Positions 33,879-47,135 are shown, numbered from the stretch's first letter. The stretch: DNA of 63,840 nucleotides from Alphaproteobacteria bacterium (GCA_035493495.1 DATJIG010000142.1:1-63840); one strand, 5' to 3'. Translations and numbers: made by a program. The notes: a model not told the origin generated them from the letters alone.

Positions 33879-35609
33879 ATGGCAACCGAGCCCATGCCGA
33901 CATCGATGACGACACGTCCGAGTATCCCGTCGATATGGGACGTGGCGGCGTTCGCCATCGTGGTCGCGCTGTTCGCGATGATCGCCACCGCGGCGCAGCA
34001 GATGATGCGGCCGCTCGCCGTGCTCGACATCGTGCCGGTGTCGCTCGATCCGTGGAACCTGCCCGAGTACGCGCTGCGCACCACCGTGCGTATGTTCGCG
34101 GCGCTCGCGGTCTCGCTCGTCTTCACCTTCGTCTACGCTACCGTCGCGGCGAAAAGCCGACGCGCCGAGCAGATCCTCATTCCGATTCTCGACGTCCTGC
34201 AGTCGGTGCCGATACTCGGCTTCATCTCCCTGACGATTGTCGTGTTCCTGTCACTGGCGCCGGGGCGCGTGCTCGGCGCGGAGTTCGCGGCGATCTTCGC
34301 GATCTTCACCAGCCAGGCCTGGAACATGACGTTCAGCCTGTACCAGTCGCTCAGGACGCTCCCCGAGGACCTCGACGAGGCCGCCCGCAGCTTCCGCTTC
34401 TCGTCATGGATGCGGTTCTGGCGCGTCGAGGTGCCGTTCGCAATGCCCGGGCTGATCTGGAACATGATGATGTCGATGTCGGGCGGCTGGTTCTTCGTCG
34501 TCGCGGCCGAGGCGATTACCGTCGGTTCGACCACCATCACGCTCCCCGGCATCGGCTCCTACATCGCGCTGGCGATCGAGCAGCGCAATCTCGCCGCTGT
34601 CGGCTGGGCGATCCTCACCATGGCGGTGGTGATCGCCTTGTACGACCAATGCCTGTTCCGGCCGCTGGTCGCATGGGCCGACCGCTTCCGATTCGAGCAG
34701 ACTCCGGGCGACGAGGCGCCGGAGTCTTGGTTCCTCACCATGCTGCGGCGATCGGGGTTCGTCCGCGCGGCGACTGCGCCCTTGCGGCGCGCCATGCGCT
34801 GGACCTTCCGCCGCCCGGCCCAGGGCGAAAACAGCCAGAACCCGGCGGCGCGCTGGCTGCGCTCGCCGTGGACGGATCGCGCGTGGGCCGCCGTGGTCGG
34901 GGTGCTCGCTGTCTACGCGGCGGTGCGCCTCGTGCGCTTCATCGGGCAGTCGCTCGTCATCGACGATGTCGTTACCGCGTTCGGTCTAGGTTTCCTGACG
35001 CTGATCCGCGTTTCCGTCCTGATCGCGCTGGCCAGCGTGCTCTGGGTGCCAATCGGCGTCATCGTCGGATTGCGACCGCGACTCGCGCAGCGGATCCAGC
35101 CGATCGCCCAGTTCCTCGCCGCGTTTCCGGCGAACCTGCTGTTCCCCGTCGCGGTGTTCGCAATCGTTCACTTCGGGCTCAATCCGGACATTTGGCTCAG
35201 TCCGCTGATCGTGCTCGGCACCCAGTGGTACATCCTGTTCAACGTCGTGGCGGGTGCGTCCGCGTTTCCGTCCGATCTGCGCGACAGCGCGATCAATTTG
35301 CGGGTGCGCGGATGGCTGTGGTGGCGCAAGGTGGTGCTGCCGGGCGTCTTTCCGTATTACCTGACCGGCGCGATAACGGCGAGCGGCGGCTCGTGGAATG
35401 CGAGCATTGTCGCCGAGTTTGTGAGCTGGGGCGACCAGCGGCTGGTGGCGCGTGGCATCGGTTCCTACATCGCCAAGGCCACCGAGGCGGGCGATCAACC
35501 CCGGATCGTTCTCGGCATCGCCGTGATGAGCGTGCTCGTGATCCTGTTCAATCGCGCCCTGTGGCGGCCGTTGTACCGCTACGCCGAGCGTCGTTTCCGC
35601 CTCGCGTGA
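33879..35609 (+). CDS. ABC transporter permease, duplicated NitT/TauT (anion)-type membrane domain
   Basis: 576 aa, about twice the length of SsuC/TauC-type permeases. There are two BPD-transporter-like halves. Confidence 0.85.
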   Translation: MATEPMPTSMTTRPSIPSIWDVAAFAIVVALFAMIATAAQQMMRPLAVLDIVPVSLDPWNLPEYALRTTVRMFAALAVSLVFTFVYATVAAKSRRAEQILIPILDVLQSVPILGFISLTIVVFLSLAPGRVLGAEFAAIFAIFTSQAWNMTFSLYQSLRTLPEDLDEAARSFRFSSWMRFWRVEVPFAMPGLIWNMMMSMSGGWFFVVAAEAITVGSTTITLPGIGSYIALAIEQRNLAAVGWAILTMAVVIALYDQCLFRPLVAWADRFRFEQTPGDEAPESWFLTMLRRSGFVRAATAPLRRAMRWTFRRPAQGENSQNPAARWLRSPWTDRAWAAVVGVLAVYAAVRLVRFIGQSLVIDDVVTAFGLGFLTLIRVSVLIALASVLWVPIGVIVGLRPRLAQRIQPIAQFLAAFPANLLFPVAVFAIVHFGLNPDIWLSPLIVLGTQWYILFNVVAGASAFPSDLRDSAINLRVRGWLWWRKVVLPGVFPYYLTGAITASGGSWNASIVAEFVSWGDQRLVARGIGSYIAKATEAGDQPRIVLGIAVMSVLVILFNRALWRPLYRYAERRFRLA

Positions 35610-35617
35610 GGACTGCC

Positions 35618-36925
35618 ATGCCCGATACCGTCATCACCGATAAGCCGCTGCTCGACATCAAGGGCGTCCGCCAGTCTTTCCCCAAGGGCTCGGGTGAGGA
35701 CCTGCTGGTGCTCGACGACATCAACCTGACGCTGCGCTGCGGCGAGATCGTCGGTCTGCTCGGGCGCTCGGGCTCCGGGAAATCGACGCTCCTGCGACTC
35801 ATCGCGGGGCTGTCCCGGCCGACTGCGGGCACGATCCTCTACGATGGCGTTCCGGTGCGCGGACCGGCGCCCGGCATCGCCATGGTGTTCCAGACGTTCG
35901 CGCTGTTCCCGTGGCTCACCGTGCTCGAGAACGTGGCGATCGGCCTCGAAGCCCTCGGCCTGCCGGAGCACGAGATCCGCAAGCGCGCGCTCTCGGCCAT
36001 CGACCTGATCGGCCTCGACGGATTCGAATCCGCATACCCGAAGGAACTTTCGGGCGGCATGCGCCAGCGCGTCGGCTTCGCGCGTGCTGTGGTGGTCCAT
36101 CCGAAAATAATGATGATGGACGAGGCGTTCTCGGCGCTCGACGTGCTGACCGCCGAGAACCTGCGTACCGACTTCCTCGAATTGTGGTCCGACGGTCAAC
36201 TTCCGATCGAGGCCGTGCTGATGGTGACCCACAACATCGAGGAAGCGGTACTGATGTGCGATCGCATCCTGGTGTTCTCCGCCGATCCCGGGCGCATCGC
36301 CCGCGAGATCCCGGTCGCCCTGCCGCATCCGCGCGACCGTGAGGACCCGCTGTTTCGCGAGCTCGTGGACAGCATTTACGTCGAGATGACGGCCCGCAAG
36401 CCGCGTCCGACGGTGCGTTCCGACCGTATGGCCGGAACCGGCATTGCGCTGCTGCTGCCGCGGGTCGGGCCGAACACGATGGCCGGTCTCATCGAGACCG
36501 TCGCGGGCTACGAGGGCCGGGCGGACCTGCCGGAGATCGCCAAGGAACTGAACATGGAGATCGACGACCTGTTTCCCGGGGCCGACGCACTTCAGCTCCT
36601 GCGGCTCGCGGAAACCGAGGAAGGCGACATCCGGCTGACGCCGATCGGTCGTACCTTCGCCGAGGCCGACACCGAGGATCGCAAGCGATTGTTCGCGCGC
36701 CAGATATTGGCCTACGTCCCGCTCGCAGCCCACATCCGTCGGGTCCTTGACGAACGTCCTACCCATCAGGCGCCGAAGAGCCGGTTCCGCGACGAACTCG
36801 AGGACCACATGAGCGAGGATTACGCCGAGCACACGCTGCGCACGGTGATCGGCTGGGGCCGCTACGGCGAGATCTTCGCCTATAACGACCAGCTCGAGAT
36901 ATTCAGTCTCGAGAACCCGACGTAA
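35618..36925 (+). CDS. ABC transporter ATP-binding protein with a C-terminal accessory domain of about 170 aa
   Basis: Internal ATG at 35618 of ORF 33773..36925. Walker A GRSGSGKST, signature LSGGMRQRV, Walker B MMMDEAFSALD. Residues after about 265 form an extra, non-ABC domain. Confidence 0.9.
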   Translation: MPDTVITDKPLLDIKGVRQSFPKGSGEDLLVLDDINLTLRCGEIVGLLGRSGSGKSTLLRLIAGLSRPTAGTILYDGVPVRGPAPGIAMVFQTFALFPWLTVLENVAIGLEALGLPEHEIRKRALSAIDLIGLDGFESAYPKELSGGMRQRVGFARAVVVHPKIMMMDEAFSALDVLTAENLRTDFLELWSDGQLPIEAVLMVTHNIEEAVLMCDRILVFSADPGRIAREIPVALPHPRDREDPLFRELVDSIYVEMTARKPRPTVRSDRMAGTGIALLLPRVGPNTMAGLIETVAGYEGRADLPEIAKELNMEIDDLFPGADALQLLRLAETEEGDIRLTPIGRTFAEADTEDRKRLFARQILAYVPLAAHIRRVLDERPTHQAPKSRFRDELEDHMSEDYAEHTLRTVIGWGRYGEIFAYNDQLEIFSLENPT

Positions 36926-36946: not shown

Positions 36947-37699
36947 TCAGGCCTTCGGCTTCTCGAAACGCAGAACGAACTCGTCGACATTGACCTTGCG
37001 CTGATTGACGTTCTCGGTGTGGTCGTCCTCGGGGTGGGCGAAGAACTTGCCTTCGTCGACGAGCTTGAATCCCGCCGCCTCAACCTCCTTGATCAACGTG
37101 GCCTTCTCGATCCGGTGCAGCGTCTTGCCGACGTTGGCACCATCGCCAGCCTTTGCCGCATGATCGGCGATGACTAGGCTTCCGCCAGGTTTCAGCGCAT
37201 CGAACATCTTCTTGTCCATCTGCGCCCGATCGACGGGCATGTACGTCGTGTCGTGGTAGAAAAAGAAAAACGTGATCATGTCGAGGTTTTTGACGTCCGG
37301 GGGCACCGGATCGTCGAACGGGCGGCCGACTGCAACGATATTGTGGGCCGGGACCGTCGCGTTGCGCTGCGCGAGCCGGTCCTTCATGCGATCCGCGAAC
37401 TCGGGCGCGTTCTGGGCGTACACCTTGCCCGTCGGGCCGACGGCCCGCGCGACGATGTCGCTGCTGTAGCCGCCGCCGGCGCCCATATCGAGCACCGTCA
37501 TCCCCGGCCGGGCGCCGGTGAAAGCCAGCAGCTTCACCGGGTCGCGCCGCTTATCGCTGGTACGATCGGCGTCGCTACGGCCCGGGTCCGCCATCAGCGC
37601 GGCGTAGTCGGGCGCCGCCTGGGCGCGTACGGGGCCGGGAGCGCTCGCCAGCAAAAGGCCGGCCAAAGCGATGAAAAGCGAGAATCGGAATGCGGTCAC
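36947..37699 (-). CDS. class I SAM-dependent methyltransferase with an N-terminal signal peptide (COG4798-like)
   Basis: GTG start with a GGGAGG RBS. Signal peptide LLLASAPGPVRA-QA. SAM motif I VLDMGAGGGY. Confidence 0.8.
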   Translation of the reverse strand: MTAFRFSLFIALAGLLLASAPGPVRAQAAPDYAALMADPGRSDADRTSDKRRDPVKLLAFTGARPGMTVLDMGAGGGYSSDIVARAVGPTGKVYAQNAPEFADRMKDRLAQRNATVPAHNIVAVGRPFDDPVPPDVKNLDMITFFFFYHDTTYMPVDRAQMDKKMFDALKPGGSLVIADHAAKAGDGANVGKTLHRIEKATLIKEVEAAGFKLVDEGKFFAHPEDDHTENVNQRKVNVDEFVLRFEKPKA

Positions 37700-37755: not shown

Positions 37756-39369
37756 TCAGGGCGATGATACCACGCGCCCGTTGGCGTTGGCGGCAGGAGC
37801 GATGTCCTCGGTATCGGCCGCTGGCGCCGGCGAGAAAACCAGCGACGGCGCGCCGGAACGAACGGCGGCGGGCCGTCGGGCGGCCTCGGGTAGGGTCGCG
37901 GTCCGCTGTTCGAGGCGGCGGATGAAGTCGAGGATGATCAGCCGGTAAAGTTCGTCCTTGAGCACCGTGTCCTCGACGCCGGAGTCGATGTTCGGGTTGT
38001 CATTGACCTCAACCACCACCAGCCCGCGCGGCGTCTGCTTGATGTCGACGCCGTAAAGGCCGTCGCCGATCAGGCTCGCCGCCTTGGTGCCGAGCGCCAC
38101 GACGTCGGCCGGCGCATCCTCGACCGCGAAGGTGCGGTCGCCGCCCTCGATGTACTTATCGCTGCCGGGCCCCGCATACTTCACGACCTGCCAGTGATCC
38201 TTGGCCATGAAATACTGGCATACGAAGATCGGTGTCCCGTTGAGCACACCCACCCGCCAGTCGAATTCCGTCTGCAGGAACTCCTGGGCGAGGATCAGAT
38301 CGGATTCCTCGAACAGCCGGTCGGCAATGCTCTCGAGCTCGGCCCGGGTGCTCGCCTTGTGGACGCCGCGCGAGAACGCCCCGTCGGGAATTTTCAGCAC
38401 GATCGGGTAGCTGAACTCGGTCTCGACCCGCCCGAGCTGGCGGCGGTCGACGGCGAGCGTCTTCGGCGTCGGCACGGCGTTGGCCTGCATCAGCTCGGCC
38501 AGATAAATCTTGTTGGCGCACTGCAGGATCGACTGCGGGCTGTCGATCACCGGCATGCCTTCGGCTTCCGCCTTCTTGGCGAAGCGGTAGGTGTGGTCGT
38601 CGATATCCGTGGTCTCGCGGATGAACAGAGCGTCGAACTCCGGCAACCGTCCGTAGTCCTTGCGCGTGATCAGCTCGATCTCGACGCCGAGGGATTCGCC
38701 GACGCGGATGAATTTCTTCAGCGCGCGCTCGTTCGACGGCGGGATGCGCTCGTCAGGGTTGTGCAGCATCGCGATGTAGTAGACGGCCGACTGCGTCGCC
38801 CGTGCGCGCCGCCAGCTCGCATGGGTGTAGCGGTCAAGCGCCTGGGCAAAGAGCGGCTCTTGGGAGGCCGTGAGATCGCGCAGCGCCATCGGCCGGATGG
38901 CGATGACCTCGAGGCCGTCCTTGCGGTGGCGCAGGTCGATCGCCAGCATCGGGCAGCGGAAGCGCGCGAAGATGTCGCGCGCGACTTCGGCAAAGCGCGG
39001 ATCGTCGGGCTCACCGAAGAACATGTGTACGGTGAAGGCGAGAGGCTCGCCGGGCTCCGGCACGAAGGTCTTGCGCACCAGCGCATTGATGTCCGGCAGC
39101 TCGCTCTGGTAGATGCGTTTCCAGTTGAGGTCGAGCAGCGTCTCGACCGACGGCACGACACGCTGGCCGCGCGCACCGGCGATGAGCGAGGCGTAGTACC
39201 CGAGCGACAGATAGCTGTAGTCGCGGCATAAGTTGATGACACGACTCGATGCGGAGAAGCGCTTGGCGGGATCGCTGACGGCGAAGTCTCGGGCGGCGAC
39301 CACTACGCGATCGGGCGCCGGCCATTTGAAATCGTCCTCGCGGTCGACGACGATCAGATGCAGGGCCAT
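37756..39369 (-). CDS. RimK-like ATP-grasp ligase with a large dedicated N-terminal domain
   Basis: 537 aa. ATP-grasp motifs (PIVLKIPDGAFSRGVHK, LAQEFLQTEFDWRVGVL, VVVEVNDNPNID) occupy roughly residues 200-480. An N-domain of about 190 aa precedes them and an Ala/Pro-rich tail follows. Confidence 0.85.
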   Translation of the reverse strand: MALHLIVVDREDDFKWPAPDRVVVAARDFAVSDPAKRFSASSRVINLCRDYSYLSLGYYASLIAGARGQRVVPSVETLLDLNWKRIYQSELPDINALVRKTFVPEPGEPLAFTVHMFFGEPDDPRFAEVARDIFARFRCPMLAIDLRHRKDGLEVIAIRPMALRDLTASQEPLFAQALDRYTHASWRRARATQSAVYYIAMLHNPDERIPPSNERALKKFIRVGESLGVEIELITRKDYGRLPEFDALFIRETTDIDDHTYRFAKKAEAEGMPVIDSPQSILQCANKIYLAELMQANAVPTPKTLAVDRRQLGRVETEFSYPIVLKIPDGAFSRGVHKASTRAELESIADRLFEESDLILAQEFLQTEFDWRVGVLNGTPIFVCQYFMAKDHWQVVKYAGPGSDKYIEGGDRTFAVEDAPADVVALGTKAASLIGDGLYGVDIKQTPRGLVVVEVNDNPNIDSGVEDTVLKDELYRLIILDFIRRLEQRTATLPEAARRPAAVRSGAPSLVFSPAPAADTEDIAPAANANGRVVSSP

Positions 39370-40485
39370 TCAGCGGGCCCCGTTACGGTTATTGCCGCGC
39401 CGCAGCAGCAGCGTGGCGCGCTGATGCGTCTGGCCGTACTGCGCCATGCGGTCGAAGTTCTTGAGCGGAACCGGCAGGTGCATGCGATCGGTCGCGGTGT
39501 GGGCTTGGGCGCCGTCCACGTACGGATCGTGCAGGTACACGTAGCTGTCGTCGAAGCCGGTCACGACCACCCAGTGCGGCTGCTTTTCCCCCGTCAGAAG
39601 ATACGCAGAGATCAGGACGACGGGGATCGCGCCTTCCTCGAATTTCTCACGGAGTGCGGCGACCGGCAATGGCCGCCTGTTCACCGGCACGCCGGCGGCG
39701 CGGATCTGGGTGATGAAATCCTTGTGAACGAGGCGGATGACTGCCTTTTTGCGCGGGTCGCGCACGGAGTCCTCGAACGGCACGCCGCGATCCGTGACGT
39801 ACAGCTCGGCGTCGAAGCCGCGCTTGGTGGCGGCGAGCGCCAGCCCATAGGCCGAGCAGCCGCCGAGGCCCGATGTCATGAACACCGTCGTCGCTTCGCG
39901 CCAGATGCGTAGTTCTTCGTTGGTGGTGACCTCGGACCCGGCTTCGAGACCCCGCATCGCCATCATCAGCGCCGCCGGCCCGCAGGTGAAATCCAGGCTC
40001 TGCGGCCAATAGGGAATCTTCGCCGCGGTCGGCGCAGGACCCGGTGCGATCGCCTTCTGCATCCGCACCGCGTCGGCGCGATCTTCGTAATACGCCTCGT
40101 GGAAGCCGAATCGGCGATAGCCCGCCCGGTAGTACAGCGACTGCGTGCGTTTGTCGTCGGCACGGACCTCGAGCCGCATGTAGGCGGCCTGGGCTTTGCG
40201 CGCCGCGAGCTCGGCGGCGGCGAGCAGCGCCCGGCCGATGCCCTCACGGCGGTGACTTGGGTCGACGGCGATCGAATACAGACGTGCGAGCGGGGTGCCG
40301 CGGCTGAACAGCACCAGCACGTAGCCGCGGATCACGCCACGGCGGTCGACGTCGACCAGCGTCGCGCCCTTGGCCCGCGAAATCATGTAGCGGAAGCTGC
40401 GCGGCGACAGACGGTCGGTACGGAACGACCGGTTCTCGATGCGCACCAGGGCTGGGATGTCCGCTTCTTCGGCGGGTCGGATCAT
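39370..40485 (-). CDS. GNAT N-acetyltransferase fused to a papain-like (C39-like) cysteine peptidase domain
   Basis: GNAT motif A SIAVDPSHRREGIGRALL in the N-terminal half. Peptidase motifs QSLDFTCGPAALMMAM (Gln/Cys) and PHWVVVTGFDDSYVYLHDP (His/Asp) in the C-terminal half. The stop abuts the RimK-like ATG (TGAATG). Confidence 0.85.
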   Translation of the reverse strand: MIRPAEEADIPALVRIENRSFRTDRLSPRSFRYMISRAKGATLVDVDRRGVIRGYVLVLFSRGTPLARLYSIAVDPSHRREGIGRALLAAAELAARKAQAAYMRLEVRADDKRTQSLYYRAGYRRFGFHEAYYEDRADAVRMQKAIAPGPAPTAAKIPYWPQSLDFTCGPAALMMAMRGLEAGSEVTTNEELRIWREATTVFMTSGLGGCSAYGLALAATKRGFDAELYVTDRGVPFEDSVRDPRKKAVIRLVHKDFITQIRAAGVPVNRRPLPVAALREKFEEGAIPVVLISAYLLTGEKQPHWVVVTGFDDSYVYLHDPYVDGAQAHTATDRMHLPVPLKNFDRMAQYGQTHQRATLLLRRGNNRNGAR

Positions 40486-40560: not shown

Positions 40561-41694
40561 CTAGTCCGCCGTTTCGCGATACACCGCAAGGGTTTCCTCC
40601 GCAACCCGCCGGTCGCCGAAGCCGGATTCGGCGAGCGCCCGGCCGGCGGCCCCCATCCTGCGCCGGATCCCGTCCTCGGCGGCGAGGCGGGCGATGGCGG
40701 ATGCCAGCGCCGCGGGGTCATGGGCGGGCACCAGAACGCCGTTCTCGCCGTCGCGCACGATCTCGCGCAGGCCGGGCCCATCGGCGGCGACGATCGGCCG
40801 GCCGCACGCCGCCGCCTCGATCAGGCACTTGGGAACCCCTTCGCCGTAGAACGACGGCAGGACGGCGATGTGACTCTCGGCCCACAGCGCGGGCATGTCG
40901 CTGACGAAGCCGCGCCACGACACTACGCCCTCGTCGTGCCAGGCGCGGAGCTGCCGCTCGGGTATCGAGGCGGGATTGTCGGGATCCGGCTTGCCGGCCA
41001 GGATCACGCGGACATTGGCGCCGTCGCGCTTCAGGATGCGCGCGGCCTCCACCAGGTCGCCGATGCCCTTGGCCCAGATCATGCGCGAGGCCAGCGTCGC
41101 GCTCACCGGGCGGCTCTCCCGCTCGGGCACCGCCTGGAACCGGGTCAGGTCGACGCCGGAGCCGCGGATCAGGCGAATGCGCCCGCGCTCGATCTCGCAC
41201 TCGCGCACCAGCACGTCGGCGTCGTCGGGGTTCTGGACGATGATCACGCTCCCCGGACGCCGCAGCAGAAAGCGGAAGCCGGCGCGGACGATCGGCCGCA
41301 GCAGGCGCGCGCGCGTGCTGGTCGACGAGAACACGAAGCCGAGGCCGGTGATCGCGTTGACGACCCGCGGCACGCCCGCGAGCCAGGCGGCGAGCGATCC
41401 CACCAGCGCCGGTTTGACCGCGACGTGGTGGACAATGTCCGGCCGTAACCGCCGATACAGTCCGACGAGGCGCATGAGGGCCGCGAGCTCCGCGAACGGA
41501 TTGAGGCTCCGGCGCGCCCAGGCGAGGGGCATGAGGTCGAATCCTTCAGCCTCGATCTGGGCGCCATGGTCCGCGACACGGGTCGCCACCATCACGTCGT
41601 AGCCCGCATCGCGGGCCGCGCGTGCGATCGGCAGACGATGGCTGACGAAGACCCAGTCTTCGGTGACGAGATAAACGATGCGCGGCTTGGTCAT
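40561..41694 (-). CDS. glycosyltransferase family 4
   Basis: 377 aa, GT-B pattern. The C-terminal EGVPKCLIEAAACGRPIV (E-x7-E-like region). ATGA overlap with the upstream gene. Confidence 0.85.
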   Translation of the reverse strand: MTKPRIVYLVTEDWVFVSHRLPIARAARDAGYDVMVATRVADHGAQIEAEGFDLMPLAWARRSLNPFAELAALMRLVGLYRRLRPDIVHHVAVKPALVGSLAAWLAGVPRVVNAITGLGFVFSSTSTRARLLRPIVRAGFRFLLRRPGSVIIVQNPDDADVLVRECEIERGRIRLIRGSGVDLTRFQAVPERESRPVSATLASRMIWAKGIGDLVEAARILKRDGANVRVILAGKPDPDNPASIPERQLRAWHDEGVVSWRGFVSDMPALWAESHIAVLPSFYGEGVPKCLIEAAACGRPIVAADGPGLREIVRDGENGVLVPAHDPAALASAIARLAAEDGIRRRMGAAGRALAESGFGDRRVAEETLAVYRETAD

Positions 41695-42584
41695 TGCGAC
41701 GTCTTGGTCAACAGGATGTCGGCCCCGGACGTCCGCAGGTCATCATCGGACAGGGCGCGGAACTCCGCGGCGAATGATTCGCGGGGCAAGGGAATCGCAT
41801 CCCACCGGTCCTGCGCCAGGACGGAGACCCAAAAGCCGGCGTTTTCGAACGCGGCCTTTATCTCGGAAAATCTCAGTCGATTGGTATAAAACCCCGAGCG
41901 CCTGGCGAACCACGGCCTCTCCCATGAGGGCTGCGCGAACCGCAGGTTGTTCAGCGACGCCTGCAGGTGATCCTTGAAGTCGATGCGGTGGCTGGCGATC
42001 CCGCTTGGCCGCTGGATGCGGTGCAGCTCGCGTGCCGTCGCCGCGAATTCGGCGAGGGGCACGTGCTCGAGAACCGCCTGCGAGAACGCGAGATCGACCG
42101 AGTCGGAGGCGAGGGATGCCAGGCCGCGCAGCCCGTCGGTCCGGACGCGGGCGTTGACCGCCGCAAGAAGCGCGTCGACGGAGCCGCACGCCTGCAGCGA
42201 GCGAAGATCGCGCATGCCGGGGCGCTCGGCGAGCCTGGCGAGAAGCGGTCGATAGGCGGCGATGTCGCGCACCGCGAAGTCACCGGCGTCGACGAGGACG
42301 CCGCCGCCGGCTCCGAACGCCCACGCGACGACGGCGGTGGCGAGCGATTCGCCCGGGCCGAGTTCGAGGTAGGTGAAGCCGGAACCGGGCGCGCCCGCGC
42401 GCTTCCAGTGGGTCTCGAAGACACGGATGGCGTAGTCCGGATCGCGCATGAAGCCCGGCGCGAACAGTCCGATGCGGTGCCACGCCCGCATCGGCACCGG
42501 CAGTCTTGCGAGCGTCACCTTGGCGGCGATCTTCGCCCACCACGGCACGAACGTGTGCAGCGACGCCTTCGTGTCGCCGCTCAT
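41691..42584 (-). CDS. class I SAM-dependent methyltransferase
   Basis: Internal ATG at 42584 overlaps the asnB stop (ATGA). Motif I YLELGPGES. DLAFSQAVLEHV. Confidence 0.7.
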   Translation of the reverse strand: MSGDTKASLHTFVPWWAKIAAKVTLARLPVPMRAWHRIGLFAPGFMRDPDYAIRVFETHWKRAGAPGSGFTYLELGPGESLATAVVAWAFGAGGGVLVDAGDFAVRDIAAYRPLLARLAERPGMRDLRSLQACGSVDALLAAVNARVRTDGLRGLASLASDSVDLAFSQAVLEHVPLAEFAATARELHRIQRPSGIASHRIDFKDHLQASLNNLRFAQPSWERPWFARRSGFYTNRLRFSEIKAAFENAGFWVSVLAQDRWDAIPLPRESFAAEFRALSDDDLRTSGADILLTKTSQ

Positions 42585-44527
42585 TCTGGCCTCCCGAGCG
42601 ACTGCATCCAGCGGCGGTGCCATGACACCCACATCAACACGGTCCACAGCTCATGGGCCCAGTTCTGGCGGCCGCCGAGGTGCTGACGCCACTTCGTGCG
42701 CACCGGCTCGGCATGGGGGATGTCGGCGCCGTGCAGGCTCTTCTCCGACAGAAGATCCTCGGCCCAGGCGCGCAACGGTCCGCGCATCCAGTCGCCGATC
42801 GGCACGCCGAAGCCGGTCTTCGGCCGCTCGATCAGCGACCGCGGCACGTAGCGGTCGAGTACGCGGCGCAGCAGCCACTTGGTGCTGCCGTCGCGGATCA
42901 GGAGGTCGGGCGGCAGGCGCCACACGAACTCGACCACGCGATGGTCGAGCAGCGGCACGCGCGCCTCGAGCGACACCGCCATGCTGGCGCGATCGACCTT
43001 CGCCAGAATGTCATCGGGCAGGTAGGTGATCAGATCGAGGTAGCGCATGCGCGCGACGAACGCCGGGATGTCGCGGGCGAGCGACGGATCGTCAATCGGA
43101 CTCGCGGGCTCGTCGGTCGGGCCGAGCAGCGACCCGGGGCTTTCCCAGAAATTGACGAGGCGGCGATAGATATCGTCGGGACGCGCGCGATCGAGGATGG
43201 CCGCAAGCTTCTTCACCTTGTCGCCGACCTGCGCCGGGCGGCGGCCGCGCGGAATCAGCGACGCCGCGGCATCCCAGAACGCCACCGGCACGGATTCCAT
43301 CATCCGTCCGACAGCGGCGCGCACCGGAGGTGGAACCGGCCCGAGGCGGCGCCAGATCCGCTCTGCCCAGATGTAGCGGTTGTAGCCCGCGAACAACTCG
43401 TCGCCGCCGTCCCCCGACAAGGCGACCGTCACGTGCCGCCTCGTCAACTCCGAGACAAGGAACGTCGGAATGGCGGACGCGTCCGCGAACGGCTCGTCGT
43501 AGATGTCGGGAAGCCTCGGAATGACATCACGCGCGCGCGCAGCATCGAGGATCAGCTCGGTGTGCTCGGTGCCGAGGTGCTTCGCGACGGCACGGGCATG
43601 CGGCGCCTCGTCGAACGACTCCTCATTGAAGCCGATGGTGAACGTGCGGACCGGCCGCGACGAGGCCGACTGCATCAACGCGACCACGGTCGAGGAATCG
43701 ACGCCCCCCGACAGGAAGGCGCCGAGCGGCACGTCGGCGACCATGCGCCGGGTCACCGCGTCCTTGAGGAGATCGTGGAGCGCGGCTTCGGCTTCGACCG
43801 GATCGCGTGGCGGCTTCGGTTGCAGGGCGACGGCGCGCGCATCCCAAAATTTCCGCGTGCTCGTCTCGCCGTCGGGGCCGACCGTCAGGACCGTGCCGGG
43901 TTCGAGCTTGAACACGTCGCGGTAGATCGCGCGCGGTGCCGGAACGTAGGCGAAGCGCAGGAACGCGGCCTGGGCGCCGCGATCGATCTCGGGCTTGAAC
44001 TCCGGCAGGGCGAAGAACGCCTTCAACTCTGACGCAAAAGCGATGGTCTGTCCGATGCGCGCCCAATACACCGGCTTGATGCCGAGGCGATCGCGGACGA
44101 GCGACAGCGTGCGCGTCCTCTTGTCCCACCAGGCGAAGGCGAACATGCCGATGAGTCGCGATGCGGTCTCGGCGACGCCGAACCGCGCGCAGAATTCGGC
44201 CAACACTTCGGTATCGGAATGGCCGCGGAACGGTCCCGCGCCATGGCGCCCCAGTTCGGCGCGTAGCTCGTCGGCGTTGTAGACCTCACCGTTGTACGAG
44301 ATCACGCCGCTGCCGTCGGCGCATGTCATCGGCTGATGGCCGGCCGGGGAGAGGTCGACGATCGACAGCCGGCGATGGCCGAGGCCGACGCCCGTCGCGC
44401 CGTCTGCCCAGGCGCCCCAATCGTCTGGCCCGCGGTAGGGAAGTGCTGCGGCCATGCGCTCGGCCAGGCCTCTGAGCTCTGGCTCGCTGCGGCTGGCGGG
44501 ACCGACAAATCCGGCAATACCGCACAT
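42581..44527 (-). CDS. asnB: asparagine synthase (glutamine-hydrolysing), polysaccharide-cluster type
   Basis: Internal ATG at 44527. MCGIAG Ntn nucleophile and SGGVDSS PP-loop. 648 aa. Confidence 0.93.
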   Translation of the reverse strand: MCGIAGFVGPASRSEPELRGLAERMAAALPYRGPDDWGAWADGATGVGLGHRRLSIVDLSPAGHQPMTCADGSGVISYNGEVYNADELRAELGRHGAGPFRGHSDTEVLAEFCARFGVAETASRLIGMFAFAWWDKRTRTLSLVRDRLGIKPVYWARIGQTIAFASELKAFFALPEFKPEIDRGAQAAFLRFAYVPAPRAIYRDVFKLEPGTVLTVGPDGETSTRKFWDARAVALQPKPPRDPVEAEAALHDLLKDAVTRRMVADVPLGAFLSGGVDSSTVVALMQSASSRPVRTFTIGFNEESFDEAPHARAVAKHLGTEHTELILDAARARDVIPRLPDIYDEPFADASAIPTFLVSELTRRHVTVALSGDGGDELFAGYNRYIWAERIWRRLGPVPPPVRAAVGRMMESVPVAFWDAAASLIPRGRRPAQVGDKVKKLAAILDRARPDDIYRRLVNFWESPGSLLGPTDEPASPIDDPSLARDIPAFVARMRYLDLITYLPDDILAKVDRASMAVSLEARVPLLDHRVVEFVWRLPPDLLIRDGSTKWLLRRVLDRYVPRSLIERPKTGFGVPIGDWMRGPLRAWAEDLLSEKSLHGADIPHAEPVRTKWRQHLGGRQNWAHELWTVLMWVSWHRRWMQSLGRPE

Positions 44528-45642
44528 CAGGCGGCCTTCACGGCTTGCGCGGCGATGTCGCGGTAGAGCTGCTCGTAGCGCCGCACGACCGCCTCGATCG
44601 AGAACTCGGATGCGATGCGTCGCCGCGCCGCCTCGCCGGCCCGCGCCCGGGCTTCCTCCGATTGGTCGAGGAAGCGCACGATTGCCCGTGCGAGCGCCCG
44701 GTCGTCGCCCGGGGGAACGACAGCACCAGTGGCACCGATGATCGTCGCCGCGTCGCCGACATCGGTGGCGATGCACGGCACGCCGGCGGCCATGGCCTCG
44801 CCGAGGGCATTCGGGAAACCTTCGGTGTGCCGCGACGGCAGGACCGCGAGGTCGAGCGCCGGCAGCAGGCTGGCGACGTCGCTGCGCTCGCCGAGCGCCT
44901 GAACCTTGTCGGCAATGGCTTCGGGAATGTGCAGCATCTCGGTGTCGCGGCCGACCAGCACGAACCGCGCGTCGGGTAGCGCCGCGGCAACATCGACGGC
45001 CGCGTGGAGAAAGCCCGCGTGATTTTTCATCGGATCGACGCGGGCGACCATACCGATGAGGAGATTCCGGTCCGTGACGCCGAGTTGCGCGCGCTGCTCG
45101 GCACGCAGCGCATCGTCGGGGCGGAAGCGGTCGAGGTCGAAACCATTGGGCAGGACGAGCCAACGGCGGGGATGGTAGCCGAGGGCCACATGGTCGCGGC
45201 GCCCGGCCTCGCTGTTGGCGATCACCGCCAGCGGTCGGCGCGAGCCGCGGGCGAGCATGTACGGCAGCACGCGTGTGCGCAGCGGGAAATCGCCGCCGCC
45301 GAGCCGCGTGCCGCGGAGGTTCCAGATCAGCTTGATGTGCGGGTACAGGAACGACATCACCAGTCCGGCAAAATCGCCGTGATAGAGCCACGTCTGCAGG
45401 ATGTCCGGCCGCTCGGCGCGGAGCAGTCGCGCGAGCCGCACTGCGGTCCGGATCGCGCCCCGGTCACGGCCCATCCCGAGCACGTGCACGGGCACTCCGG
45501 TCGCGCGGATCTCGTCGGCCAGCGCGTCCTCACCGCTGAGAACGACGACGACCGCGTCGATGGCCGCCCGATCGCGGTGCTGCAGCAGCTTGAGCAGCAT
45601 GCCTTCGGCCCCCGCGCGGCGCAGGCCGGTGATGAGGTGCAT
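44527..45642 (-). CDS. glycosyltransferase family 4
   Basis: Internal ATG at 45642 (MHLITGLRRAGAEGM...). The C-terminal EGFPNALGEAMAAGVPCI motif. The stop overlaps the asnB start (TGATG). Confidence 0.85.
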   Translation of the reverse strand: MHLITGLRRAGAEGMLLKLLQHRDRAAIDAVVVVLSGEDALADEIRATGVPVHVLGMGRDRGAIRTAVRLARLLRAERPDILQTWLYHGDFAGLVMSFLYPHIKLIWNLRGTRLGGGDFPLRTRVLPYMLARGSRRPLAVIANSEAGRRDHVALGYHPRRWLVLPNGFDLDRFRPDDALRAEQRAQLGVTDRNLLIGMVARVDPMKNHAGFLHAAVDVAAALPDARFVLVGRDTEMLHIPEAIADKVQALGERSDVASLLPALDLAVLPSRHTEGFPNALGEAMAAGVPCIATDVGDAATIIGATGAVVPPGDDRALARAIVRFLDQSEEARARAGEAARRRIASEFSIEAVVRRYEQLYRDIAAQAVKAA

Positions 45643-45854
45643 GATCTTCAGTGGCGGGCGGCGGGGGTCGGACACTGCGGCAAATCTTGCCAGAAATCGG
45701 GGGCTGGGTCGAACGCGGTGCGTTGCTTTCCCTCGGGTTCGCACCATGCTAAAAAGCGGCCCGTCGTGCCGCGCAGGCCACCTCGTGTACAATCCCCGGA
45801 AAATCTCCACAAGCTCAGGGTTGAGGTTTCGTCGGGAGTCGGTCCCGGCGACCA

Positions 45855-47135
45855 ATGAACACGCGATCCGCCGCCGTGTCCGGTGAGGCGATGACCGTCA
45901 ACCCCGAATCCCGCCGCCCGATCCTCGCGCACTGGCTCCTGCTCATCTTCGTCCTGATGCCGCCGGTCGGCGTCTACGCGGCGCTCGGCGTCGCGCCGCT
46001 GCTCGCGGTGGCGGCTGTTGGCGTGGTCGTGCTGAGCCCGCGGGAGTCCTGGCGCTGGGTGCGACAGCCACGATTGCTCGCGGTCCTGCTGGGCGCGCTC
46101 GCGGTGGTCGGCATGGCGTCGGGCCTGTGGTCGATCCTGCCGCAACACAGCTTCCTCGAAGGACTGCGTTTCCTGACGCTGAGCGCGTCGGGACTCGTGG
46201 TCGCGGGCGCGGTGGCAAGCCTCGGGGACGGCGCGCGCGGACGGATTCTGCGCTGGAGCGCGATCAGCATCATCGTCACGGTCGCAGCGCTGGCGCTGGA
46301 CCTGGCCGTCGGCCTGCCAGTCTTACGGCTCTTCGTTCGCGGTGAGGTCATCCCGCTGGAACGCTTCGATCGCGGCACGACGGTGATTGGACTCCTGTTC
46401 TGGCCAATCACGCTCGGCCTCTGGCGCGCTCAGGCTCGCCGACTGCTTGCGGTTACCTGCGTGGCGGTCGTCGTGGCCCTGATCGTCATTCCGAGCAGCG
46501 CCAATCGCCTCGCCCTGGCCATCGGCGCCGTCACCTGGATTCTCGCCTGGAGCGTCCCGCGGGCGATCCCGCGCCTCGTGCTCGCGGCGACGGTGGTAGT
46601 GGGGCTCGCCCTGCCGTTTGCCATTCCGCGTCTGCTGCCGAGCAACGAAAGCGTGGTCGTGCTCGCGGATCATGCGCCGTGGATCAAGTTCTCCGGCCTC
46701 CACCGGCTGCTGATTTGGCGCTTCGTGTCGGAGCGCACGGCCGAACGGCCGCTGCTCGGCTGGGGGATGGACGCCTCGCGCGAGCTTCCCGGCGGCCACA
46801 CCAAGCTGGTCGAGACGCTGTCGCGTCCGATCGTTCCCGATAGCTCCGAGGCGCTGCCGCTCCACCCCCACGATGCCTTCCTGCAGTGGTGGGTCGAACT
46901 GGGCGCGATCGGAGCGGTTCTCGGCCTCGGCGCCGTTGTCACGCTCCTGCTGCGGGTGGCATCCCTGCCATCGCGCGTGGCGGTCGCGAGCGCAACCGCC
47001 TTCGCCGTCGGGGCGATCACGATCGCCATGCTCGGCTATGGGTTCTGGCAGTCGTGGTGGTTGTCGACGTTGTGGCTTGCCGGGTCGTTGACCGCGGCGG
47101 TCTCGACGGCCGGGGATCAGACCCGGAAGTCGTAG
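45855..47135 (+). CDS. O-antigen ligase / polymerase family membrane protein (Wzy_C-like)
   Basis: About 11-12 TM helices. Periplasmic loop ending HPHDAFLQWWVELGAIG, typical of the Wzy_C domain. The start could instead be the ATG at 45891. Confidence 0.75.
   Translation: MNTRSAAVSGEAMTVNPESRRPILAHWLLLIFVLMPPVGVYAALGVAPLLAVAAVGVVVLSPRESWRWVRQPRLLAVLLGALAVVGMASGLWSILPQHSFLEGLRFLTLSASGLVVAGAVASLGDGARGRILRWSAISIIVTVAALALDLAVGLPVLRLFVRGEVIPLERFDRGTTVIGLLFWPITLGLWRAQARRLLAVTCVAVVVALIVIPSSANRLALAIGAVTWILAWSVPRAIPRLVLAATVVVGLALPFAIPRLLPSNESVVVLADHAPWIKFSGLHRLLIWRFVSERTAERPLLGWGMDASRELPGGHTKLVETLSRPIVPDSSEALPLHPHDAFLQWWVELGAIGAVLGLGAVVTLLLRVASLPSRVAVASATAFAVGAITIAMLGYGFWQSWWLSTLWLAGSLTAAVSTAGDQTRKS

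Follow-up and report, generated by a model that had tools for sequence, protein, structure and literature searches.

Two abutting genes on the minus strand of an alphaproteobacterial contig may form a self-contained, translationally coupled module that builds and handles an N-acetylated peptide without the ribosome, a reading held with about even confidence. The window, i.e., the whole stretch of DNA that was analysed, is 63,840 nt in length (Alphaproteobacteria bacterium, GCA_035493495.1 DATJIG010000142.1:1-63840), and the pair occupies positions 37,756-40,485. The upstream gene (39370-40485, 371 aa) encodes a fusion of a GNAT domain to a C39-like cysteine peptidase domain, and the downstream gene (37756-39369, 537 aa) encodes an ATP-grasp amide ligase with an N-terminal RLAN domain. 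Among homologous loci the acetyltransferase and the ligase are almost always adjacent, or fused into one chain, while the peptidase domain is optional.

Gene layout and protein domains

Both ORFs were recovered at exactly the coordinates of the initial annotation, and the junction between them is as described there: the first gene ends in TGA (39372-39370), and the ATG that starts the second (39369-39367) comes straight after it. This TGAATG junction (39367-39372, minus strand) has zero spacer, implying that the two genes are translationally coupled. A scan for promoters and terminators detected no sigma-70-like sites, and terminator-like sites occurred at chance level.

The GNAT domain (residues 1-150; 40036-40485, minus strand) is of the RimI/Naa-like N-alpha-acetyltransferase type. 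Pfam places Acetyltransf_1 at residues 14-123 of the 371 aa protein (E 6.5e-14), and a profile of the domain matched ARD1, Naa10 and RimI structures in the PDB, with E values down to 3.7e-15. Within the acetyl-CoA motif R79-L87 (40225-40251), G84 and L87 are invariant, and a second motif (F21..D24-R25..S27..R29..F31-R32) is conserved even when standalone GNAT partners are included. The score against the rimI model TIGR01575 is 72.7 bits, below the cutoff of 86.4, which a fused relative (P0280) passes with 88.5 bits. By these profile scores the window domain is RimI-like, yet not filed as RimI. NCBI labels the 371 aa homologues 'GNAT family N-acetyltransferase/peptidase C39 family protein'.

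The second domain of the fusion (residues 157-361; 39403-40017, minus strand) belongs to DUF3335, the 'Peptidase_C39 like family' (PF11814), with 268 bits against a cutoff of 25 (E 6e-80) and a match near full length (profile positions 1-205 of 206), while the classical C39 family, PF03412, gives only 18 bits, below its cutoff of 22. The candidate catalytic residues, Q162 (40000-40002), C168 (39982-39984), H304 (39574-39576) and D320 (39526-39528), all on the minus strand, are those picked out in the initial annotation; they lie at family-invariant positions in an alignment of 20 homologues (54-62% identity), and the active site is intact. The Q-x5-C and H-x15-D spacing is presumably that of ComA. 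In the structure model (pLDDT 88.2) the cysteine sits at the N-terminus of a long helix (domain residues 19-31), and the histidine and aspartate lie on the following beta-hairpin, where they flank strands 154-162 and 166-170. The modelled topology is papain-like, and the domain is predicted to be a peptidase or transacylase. Foldseek searches with the model returned the C39 peptidases PCAT1, ComA and LahT, and also Alr0975 and the transacylase CtaG, which are enzymes of small peptides; the acyl-enzyme structures of Alr0975, a glutathione-acylated, phytochelatin-synthase-like protein, match at TMq 0.50 and TMt 0.54. A PDB sequence search with this domain gave no useful match, the profile search being swamped by GNAT matches.

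The 537 aa protein contains a complete ATP-grasp module at residues 198-490 (37900-38778, minus strand). Pfam matches to RimK, R2K_3 and ATP-grasp_3 extend over approximately residues 284-460 (PF08443, 30.7 against 21 bits; PF14243, 34.1 against 26.3 bits), TIGR00768 aligns residues 241-461 to its profile positions 44-257, and the nearest PDB matches are LysX, ArgX and RimK. In 15 ligases there is no variation at K326, S333-R334-G335, Q362-E363, D370-W371-R372, D442, K444, E454 and N456, positions that include the ATP-binding lysine (K326, 38392-38394) and the Mg-binding pair (E454 and N456, 38002-38010). The models for bona fide RimK are missed by a wide distance (NF007764, 27.1 against 331 bits; TIGR00768, 80.4 against 143.4 bits), as would be expected from the earlier remark that this architecture differs from canonical RimK. 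These scores clearly set the window ligase apart from bona fide RimK, the enzyme that modifies S6, even though NCBI labels its homologues 'RimK family protein'; it forms its own clade in the RimK/LysX/MptN branch, defined by the N-terminal RLAN domain. The nearest curated models (rimK_fam, LysX, MptN and CofF) are all glutamate-type, and since the ligase scores under every curated family cutoff, glutamate specificity is itself an extrapolation.

The region preceding the ATP-grasp module had been described as an unrelated domain of about 190 aa. A separate domain is present (residues 1-195; 38785-39369, minus strand), but it is Pfam RLAN (PF14401, 134.1 bits against a cutoff of 25, E 3.9e-39, residues 33-177) and is ATP-grasp-like by predicted structure, so that the word 'unrelated' does not hold. 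Its model (pLDDT 85.5) has no catalytic residues, and the domain is predicted to be non-catalytic. The top Foldseek matches are LysX, ArgX and RimK (E 2e-5, TMq 0.59), and the predicted fold is like that of an ATP-grasp enzyme's N-terminal half. A PDB sequence search with RLAN gave no useful match; aligning it by hhalign with the catalytic module of the same protein gave a collinear alignment that is not significant (E 0.18), so the idea of a duplication rests on the fold match. The C-terminal Ala/Pro-rich tail (residues 491-537; 37759-37899, minus strand) is present in the window protein as first described but is lineage-specific and not a feature of the family, as its length varies and many homologues lack it; ligases of Azospirillum stop at about residue 490. 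Otherwise, profile searches with Pfam and NCBIfam bore out the original domain assignments for both proteins, and the motifs quoted with them are present in the window proteins and conserved among homologues.

Distribution, linkage and neighbourhood

Species representatives with the ligase number at least 600, among them Azospirillum, Thiocapsa, Ectothiorhodospira, Competibacter and some Pseudomonas, and hundreds of database proteins share 50-90% identity with those of the window. In a sample of 82 loci, a GNAT gene adjoins the ligase gene in 79, with unrelated flanks, although these are about the 80 loci most similar to the query and the frequencies may not hold across the RLAN family. The inferred intergenic gap is mostly -15 to +50 nt (69 same-strand loci), the stop and start codons overlapping or abutting in most cases, and a reverse look-up starting from GNAT-C39 proteins again found the ligase next door. 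The pair occurs in Alpha-, Beta-, Gamma- and Zetaproteobacteria, so that its synteny, which might have been confined to close relatives, extends across four classes.

Not every partner carries a peptidase. Fourteen of the 79 linked partners are standalone GNAT proteins without this domain, which is found in about four fifths of the sampled loci, and several independent contigs encode GNAT-RLAN-ATP-grasp single-chain fusions that stand alone and also lack it. The GNAT domain and the ligase are therefore the core of the system and the peptidase domain is optional, contrary to the initial annotation, which had counted a trimming peptidase as part of the coupled unit. P. aeruginosa has an RLAN-ligase copy without a GNAT partner, and distant RLAN-ligases in Legionella pair with members of the GCS2 and N-formylglutamate amidohydrolase families, which are small-molecule-type enzymes.

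Clustering across the 82 loci, which covered ORFs of 90 aa or more up to 7 kb away, gave only the pair, antisense shadow ORFs and lineage-restricted neighbours; no third gene emerged, whether as a conserved neighbour, a precursor or a target. In the window, the gaps flanking the pair are 75 and 56 bp, leaving no room for a small precursor ORF. No ABC exporter or GG-leader precursor is conserved beside the pair, either in the window or in the sampled loci. An origin in a defence system or a mobile element was rejected. PADLOC models for anti-phage defence gave zero matches for either protein; carriage of the system by phages was not detected, the sole phage match being to two Yersinia phages, over one ATP-grasp segment at 30% identity; and the 'plasmid' matches were chromids or chromosome-like records.

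The genes upstream on the same strand are of exopolysaccharide (EPS) type, i.e., a GT4 glycosyltransferase, a methyltransferase, an AsnB-like amidotransferase and Wzy_C, and the pair lies 75 bp downstream of the GT4 gene inside a PEP-CTERM/XrtA-type EPS block. The surface-glycan block noted upstream of the pair is thus real in the window, but as a general link it is limited to the clade of the window (L084 and L003), where the order of EPS genes followed by the pair is kept. EPS genes are not beside the pair in the other sampled loci, and the flanks are wholly different in Azospirillum, Rhodospirillales and Gammaproteobacteria. The AsnB-like gene was also considered as kin to the NAGGN system and rejected, its score on the AsnO model TIGR03104 being 372 against a cutoff of 570 while the EPS-type model TIGR03108 fits better (566 bits); nor was it kept as a NAGGN partner of the pair, since it is linked to it only in this clade.

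Proposed activity and competing explanations

Characterised ligases of the RimK/LysX/MptN branch join glutamate or an analogue to a carboxylate through an acyl-phosphate. The 537 aa ATP-grasp protein would, by analogy, be an active amide ligase joining an amino acid, probably of glutamate type, to a carboxylate. RLAN would be the catalytically dead remnant of a half ATP-grasp module and may have a scaffold or docking role. The RimI-like GNAT domain would acetylate a free alpha-amino group, either that of the completed peptide or that of its first residue; in the latter case the N-blocked primer could be lengthened only from its C-terminus. The C39/papain-like Cys-His-Asp domain fused to the GNAT would hydrolyse or transfer the product, and so serve turnover or length control, much as RimB does for RimK. 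A free acidic (Glu/Asp-type) N-acetyl oligopeptide, comparable to NAAG or N-acetylglutaminylglutamine, appears somewhat more likely as the product than a protein tail. More tentatively, and at somewhat less than even confidence, the module may make N-acetylated oligo-glutamyl (NAAG-like) peptides, an undescribed class of bacterial metabolites, or else an acetyl-capped protein tail, with RLAN docking the GNAT domain and the papain-fold domain acting as the turnover or transfer enzyme.

The module may instead tag proteins, a reading that is rather unlikely but has several precedents. An unlinked protein recognised by RLAN would be extended with amino acids by the ligase, either at its C-terminus or on a side-chain carboxylate, the GNAT domain would acetylate the protein or the tail, and the C39-like domain would remove the tail. 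RimI acts on S18, RimK on S6, LysX on LysW and C39 peptidases on leader peptides, so that for each of the three catalytic domains the closest characterised relatives act on proteins or ribosomal peptides, which favours this explanation: the nearest solved or curated relatives of the ligase (RimK, LysX/ArgX) work on protein C-termini, the GNAT domain is closest to protein N-terminal acetyltransferases, and RimK-RimB is a precedent for a ligase and a protease acting on a protein. No candidate target is conserved nearby in the 82 loci, but rimK itself is unlinked to its target gene, so the lack of a nearby target does not exclude tagging. Against it, N-alpha-acetylation and C-terminal extension of one protein have no obvious need of a fused or coupled pair, Ngg, to which the GNAT-ligase fusions are comparable, is a small-molecule enzyme, and the distant RLAN-ligases sit with GCS2/FGase-type small-molecule enzymes.

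If the C39-like domain were a transferase, passing an acyl group held on Cys168 from the ligase or GNAT product to an amine acceptor, then the pair would be a small assembly line comparable to phytochelatin synthase, CtaG and BtrH. The Foldseek matches to the Alr0975 acyl-enzyme structures and to CtaG point this way, and CtaG, a papain-like transacylase working with an ATP-grasp ligase, was placed in PF11814 by HHpred (PMC7183216). This is improbable, as no carrier-protein gene is linked to the pair and the fold matches are of moderate strength (TM about 0.5). Many loci, and the fusions, do without the domain, a pattern more in keeping with an accessory part in turnover than with an indispensable step of assembly.

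Still less probable is a role in decorating the exopolysaccharide, in which the pair would attach an N-acetylated amino acid or peptide to a carboxylate or amine of a sugar that the upstream EPS genes produce. Its same-strand position close behind the GT4 gene, the order kept in L084 and L003, and the proposal that TupA-like ATP-grasp ligases decorate polysaccharides (PMC13419641) are consistent with this, but the absence of EPS genes beside the pair in the other sampled loci, and the wholly different flanks outside the clade of the window, argue against it. The chance adjacency of an ordinary RimI (S18 acetylase) and an ordinary RimK (S6 polyglutamylase) is more doubtful again: family names and some database labels suggest it, such as 'ribosomal protein S18-alanine N-acetyltransferase', the NCBI label for P0219, but the ligase scores below the RimK equivalog cutoff (27 against 331 bits) and the window GNAT below that of RimI, neither RimK nor RimI has the extra RLAN and C39-like domains, and the linkage and fusions are specific to the RLAN-ligase clade. 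Maturation of a RiPP or bacteriocin, with the C39 domain cutting off a double-glycine leader, is the least credible, since the structural likeness to the leader peptidases PCAT1, ComA and LahT is offset by the PF03412 score of 18 against 22 bits and by the lack of an ABC-transporter fusion, a conserved precursor ORF, or room for a precursor in the window.

Relation to known systems and significance

The preferred reading, a module for an N-acetylated peptide, has parallels in several known systems. RimB strips glutamate from RimK products and stimulates poly-Glu synthesis, and RimK-RimB (RimABK) resembles the window pair in combining a ligase of the same ATP-grasp branch with an antagonising or modulating peptidase (PMC11957791); RimK differs in being about 300 aa without RLAN, the system has no GNAT, and the window ligase fails the RimK equivalog. 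Ngg carries out both N-acetylation and peptide-bond formation to give an N-acetyl dipeptide, with a peptidase in the same operon (PMC8070244), and in the AsnO-Ngg-peptidase operon of NAGGN synthesis the two activities lie in one protein, as in the GNAT-RLAN-ligase fusions. The GNAT motif, a generic one, is where homology between Ngg and the window pair stops: scores on TIGR03103 are 22.6-39 bits, with a cutoff of 569, and the window protein reaches its 22.6 through this motif only. Ngg has no RLAN and a peptidase of another family. Mammalian RIMKLA and RIMKLB are RimK-family ATP-grasp enzymes that add glutamate to an N-acetylated or N-blocked acid, RIMKLB being an N-acetylaspartylglutamate and beta-citrylglutamate synthase (PMC7907349); the likeness to the window ligase is one of description, and these enzymes differ in being eukaryotic, without RLAN, and with an unlinked acetyltransferase. 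CtaD/CtaG (closthioamide) and BtrJ/BtrH (butirosin) also combine an ATP-grasp ligase with a C39/BtrH-like Cys-His-Asp enzyme but are thiotemplated on carrier proteins, whereas the window pair has no linked carrier gene and its fold similarity to them is moderate.

The architecture itself is not new. RLAN (PF14401) and DUF3335 (PF11814) are named Pfam families and both proteins are named by NCBI. Iyer et al. reportedly predicted this architecture in 2009 by comparative genomics (in Mol Biosyst 5:1636), and with the Pfam and NCBI annotation in place it will be no surprise to specialists. The mention of such a prediction in the initial annotation fits the existence of the two families and the citation of Iyer et al. 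2009 for GNAT-DUF3335 fusions in PMC10318531. Compared with the RLAN-type RimK-like ligase with a GNAT/papain-like peptidase (PF14401, PF11814; Iyer et al. 2009), the window pair is identical in architecture, gene order and coupling, and differs in nothing essential, the Ala/Pro tail and the EPS location being local peculiarities. An experimental or functional study of RLAN, DUF3335 or the pair was not found in the searchable literature, in agreement with the initial annotation, which knew of none. What is added here is the species spread, the linkage counts, the optional status of the peptidase, the non-RimK scores, the predicted half-ATP-grasp fold of RLAN, and the limits on the tail and on the glycan link.

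The module is widespread, compact and apparently autonomous. Two genes should suffice for heterologous reconstitution, making the system directly testable. The identity of the product would give the Pfam families RLAN and DUF3335 a function, would tell if bacteria produce NAAG-like N-acetyl peptides or instead carry a new modification of proteins, and would put a third type of ligase/peptidase coupling beside RimK-RimB and Ngg.

Architecture and active sites of the gene pair

Both ORFs are confirmed and abut on the minus strand, as the initial annotation had described. The upstream gene (39370–40485) encodes a protein of 371 aa, and its TGA is directly followed in the sequence by the ATG of the gene for the 537 aa ligase (37756–39369). 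By Pfam, the 371 aa protein consists of an Acetyltransf_1 (GNAT) domain at residues 14–123 and a full-length DUF3335 domain ('Peptidase_C39 like'; residues 157–361, E = 6e-80), and the 537 aa protein carries RLAN ('RimK-like ATPgrasp N-terminal domain'; residues 33–177, E = 3.9e-39) with ATP-grasp matches C-terminal to it. The large extra N-terminal domain noted earlier is therefore present but is not anonymous, being a named family; the name reportedly stems from Iyer et al. 2009. Homologues of the ligase are labelled 'RimK family protein' by NCBI, and those of its partner 'GNAT family N-acetyltransferase/peptidase C39 family protein'.

Among 15 ligases of 51–69% identity, residues K326, S333-R334-G335, Q362-E363, D370-W371-R372, D442, K444, E454 and N456 are invariant, the set expected of an active ATP-grasp enzyme. 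The Ala/Pro tail beyond about residue 490, previously counted as part of the ligase architecture, varies in length across these proteins and is frequently missing, and so is a local feature. Twenty GNAT-C39 homologues all retain Q162, C168, H304 and D320; the acetyl-CoA motif residues G84 and L87 and a characteristic motif near the N-terminus (F21..D24-R25..S27..R29..F31-R32) are likewise invariant. A structure model of residues 150–371 (pLDDT 88.2) places the Cys at the N-terminus of a long helix, with the His and Asp on the next hairpin, a papain-like arrangement. Together with their invariance, this argues that the Gln, Cys, His and Asp occupy the catalytic positions of the family. By Foldseek, the model matches the C39 domains of PCAT1, ComA and LahT, the glutathione-acylated phytochelatin-synthase-like Alr0975, a B. 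anthracis C39-like protein (3erv), PeiR and the transacylase CtaG.

For a model of ligase residues 1–200 (pLDDT 85.5), the top-ranking PDB structures are ATP-grasp ligases, LysX first (E = 2e-5, TMq 0.59), then ArgX and RimK. The modelled segment lies outside the catalytic ATP-grasp module of the ligase itself, which begins at about residue 198. A profile-profile comparison between RLAN and the module was collinear over the pre-ATP-grasp and central domains and was not significant (E = 0.18). RLAN has neither the ATP-binding Lys nor the E-x-N motif. RLAN is inferred, with moderate confidence, to be catalytically inactive and to share the fold seen in the N-terminal half of ATP-grasp enzymes; it may have arisen by an old internal duplication.

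The ligase is distinct from bona fide RimK, scoring 27 bits against a cutoff of 331 for the E. coli-type equivalog and 80 against 143 for the RimK subfamily model, and it falls well under the cutoffs of the LysX, MptN, CofF and GshB models; its nearest models are all glutamate-type amide ligases. The GNAT domain is nearest to the N-alpha-acetyltransferases RimI, ARD1/Naa10 and Naa30, and was rejected as a true RimI (72.7 bits, cutoff 86.4). An Ngg identity was also discarded, as that model aligns to the acetyl-CoA motif only.

Distribution and linkage

A pattern scan with one genome per species returned at least 600 stretches, and 599 among the matches listed encode a ligase relative. The best 80 of these 600 or more belong to the Alpha-, Beta-, Gamma- and Zetaproteobacteria, apart from a few in MAGs assigned to other phyla. 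Three loci (L008, L046 and L068) carry a proteobacterial-type pair on contigs of MAGs labelled Flavobacteriales, Bifidobacterium and Mycobacteriaceae; binning errors are the likely cause, and the apparent occurrence outside Proteobacteria should accordingly be read with caution.

A GNAT homologue adjoins the ligase in 79 of 82 loci, one of the three exceptions being a truncated contig. The pair is widely syntenic, spanning several proteobacterial classes in which the flanking genes differ and are unrelated, and clustering of ORFs of at least 90 aa within 7 kb across the loci found no third broadly shared family near it. Gaps in same-strand loci are mostly −15 to +50 nt. Sixty-five partners are GNAT-C39 fusions (59 co-directional, 6 divergent) and 14 are GNAT-only (10 co-directional, 4 divergent). 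The latter are 150–170 aa long and carry the family N-terminal motif, indicating that they are orthologues without the peptidase. Reverse look-up of two gammaproteobacterial GNAT-C39 proteins found an RLAN-ligase immediately downstream. Pseudomonas nitroreducens NBRC 12694 has two copies of the system (L074, L078), each in divergent orientation; the partner is GNAT-only in one copy and a GNAT-C39 fusion in the other.

An exhaustive RLAN-domain search gave 669 clusters at 50% identity (309 at E ≤ 1e-10), several of which are single-chain GNAT-RLAN-ATP-grasp proteins without a C39 domain. These fusions occur on multiple independent contigs and are solitary in their neighbourhoods; an example of 641 aa (locus L089, 6001–7926; also L090) is not accompanied by a C39 gene. 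Two genes upstream of the L089 fusion, the same strand carries a gene for an M24 peptidase. In the fusions RLAN directly follows GNAT, which suggests a docking or scaffold role. Given the GNAT-only partners and the fusions, the trimming peptidase is not a core part as first proposed, and we conclude that the functional core is GNAT plus ligase, with the peptidase domain a common accessory.

Genomic surroundings

Upstream of the pair is an exopolysaccharide-type block (40561–47135) with minus-strand genes for a GT4 glycosyltransferase (40561–41694), a methyltransferase (41691–42647) and an AsnB-like amidotransferase (within 42581–45391), and beyond these a plus-strand gene for a Wzy_C/O-antigen-ligase-like protein (45855–47135). 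The best curated matches of the upstream genes are PEP-CTERM/XrtA exopolysaccharide-locus models; for the AsnB-like protein this is the XrtA/PEP-CTERM amidotransferase TIGR03108 (566 bits against a cutoff of 816.9). The pair does sit directly downstream of a surface-glycan block on the same strand, but the order AsnB-(MTase)-GT4-pair recurs only in L084 and L003, its two nearest relatives (90% and 74% ligase identity, respectively), and is absent from all other sampled loci, so the adjacency is lineage-specific. On the other side, 56 bp downstream of the ligase, a minus-strand gene (36947–37699) encodes a SAM-methyltransferase-like protein of 250 aa whose hydrophobic N-terminus resembles a signal peptide; in L084 the ligase is likewise followed by a homologue, and none was detected in the other sampled loci. 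Convergent to these are plus-strand ABC transporter genes (33879–36925) for a permease (BPD_transp_1) and an ATPase whose C-terminal domain is AAA_assoc_C. The ORF list fuses the two into a 1050 aa frame from 33773, which is unlikely to represent one genuine gene.

RLAN-ligases also occur in other settings. A different type of operon in Legionella adelaidensis (L086, 41–3232) has no GNAT; downstream of the ligase come first a glutamate-cysteine-ligase-like GCS2-family protein and next an N-formylglutamate-amidohydrolase-family protein. A P. aeruginosa paralogue of 44% identity (L083, 6902–8491, NZ_CP133752.1), also with no adjoining GNAT, neighbours a Glu/Asp ABC transporter, ggt, pagP, an SDR gene and a convergent PLP aminotransferase. 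We take these surroundings to resemble the chromosomal PA1338–PA1347 region of P. aeruginosa; NZ_CP133752.1 is labelled a plasmid. In 14 of 88 loci, argE-like (M20 deacetylase) and/or argA-like (AA_kinase plus GNAT) genes divergently adjoin the pair (L087, 2473–5248; L088, 3069–5679; also L019, L025, L026, L028, L037, L048, L053, L060, L066, L067 and L071). Because all 14 belong to related Gammaproteobacteria, the arrangement may reflect shared ancestry of the gene order and not a functional connection. The three settings, which are not mutually independent, hint weakly at N-acyl-glutamate-type small-molecule chemistry. Yersinia phages vB_Yru_GN1 and YerA41 (LC779065.1, MW570730.1) carry a gene annotated 'structural protein' with 30% identity to ligase residues 268–456, the ATP-grasp core only, marking it as a phage-encoded ATP-grasp enzyme.

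Proposed function

The earlier interpretation, a system that builds, trims and caps a peptide or protein tail, is partly supported, and the best-supported reading is a non-ribosomal system. The ligase would form amide bonds via an acyl-phosphate, its substrates probably being of the glutamate type; the RimI-like GNAT would acetylate a free alpha-amine, as primer or cap; and the Cys-His-Asp domain, where present, would hydrolyse or transfer the product. Precedents are Ngg, which both acetylates and forms a peptide bond and whose operon also encodes a peptidase (PMC8070244), RIMKLB, the NAAG/beta-citrylglutamate synthase (PMC7907349), RimK-RimB, in which the protease trims and stimulates the ligase (PMC11957791), and CtaD-CtaG, an ATP-grasp ligase and a papain-like transacylase working together (PMC7183216). 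The product could be a tail on a protein, a model that retains substantial weight because, for each domain, the closest relatives of known function have protein substrates. A free N-acetyl peptide is nevertheless favoured over such a tail, given that GNAT and ligase can be fused, that no conserved target gene was found and that distant RLAN-ligases are partnered by small-molecule-type enzymes.

DUF3335 is often fused to GNAT domains, for which Iyer et al. 2009 is cited (PMC10318531), and literature searches on the names and accessions of the families yielded no functional study. The pair thus belongs, as an unremarkable member, to a system already catalogued and computationally predicted but experimentally uncharacterised. 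Possible additions to the 2009 prediction are the dispensability of the peptidase, the fusion of GNAT, RLAN and ligase in one chain, and the predicted likeness of RLAN to ATP-grasp folds. The system will not surprise a specialist; it is compact and widespread, and its product could be found by two-gene reconstitution.
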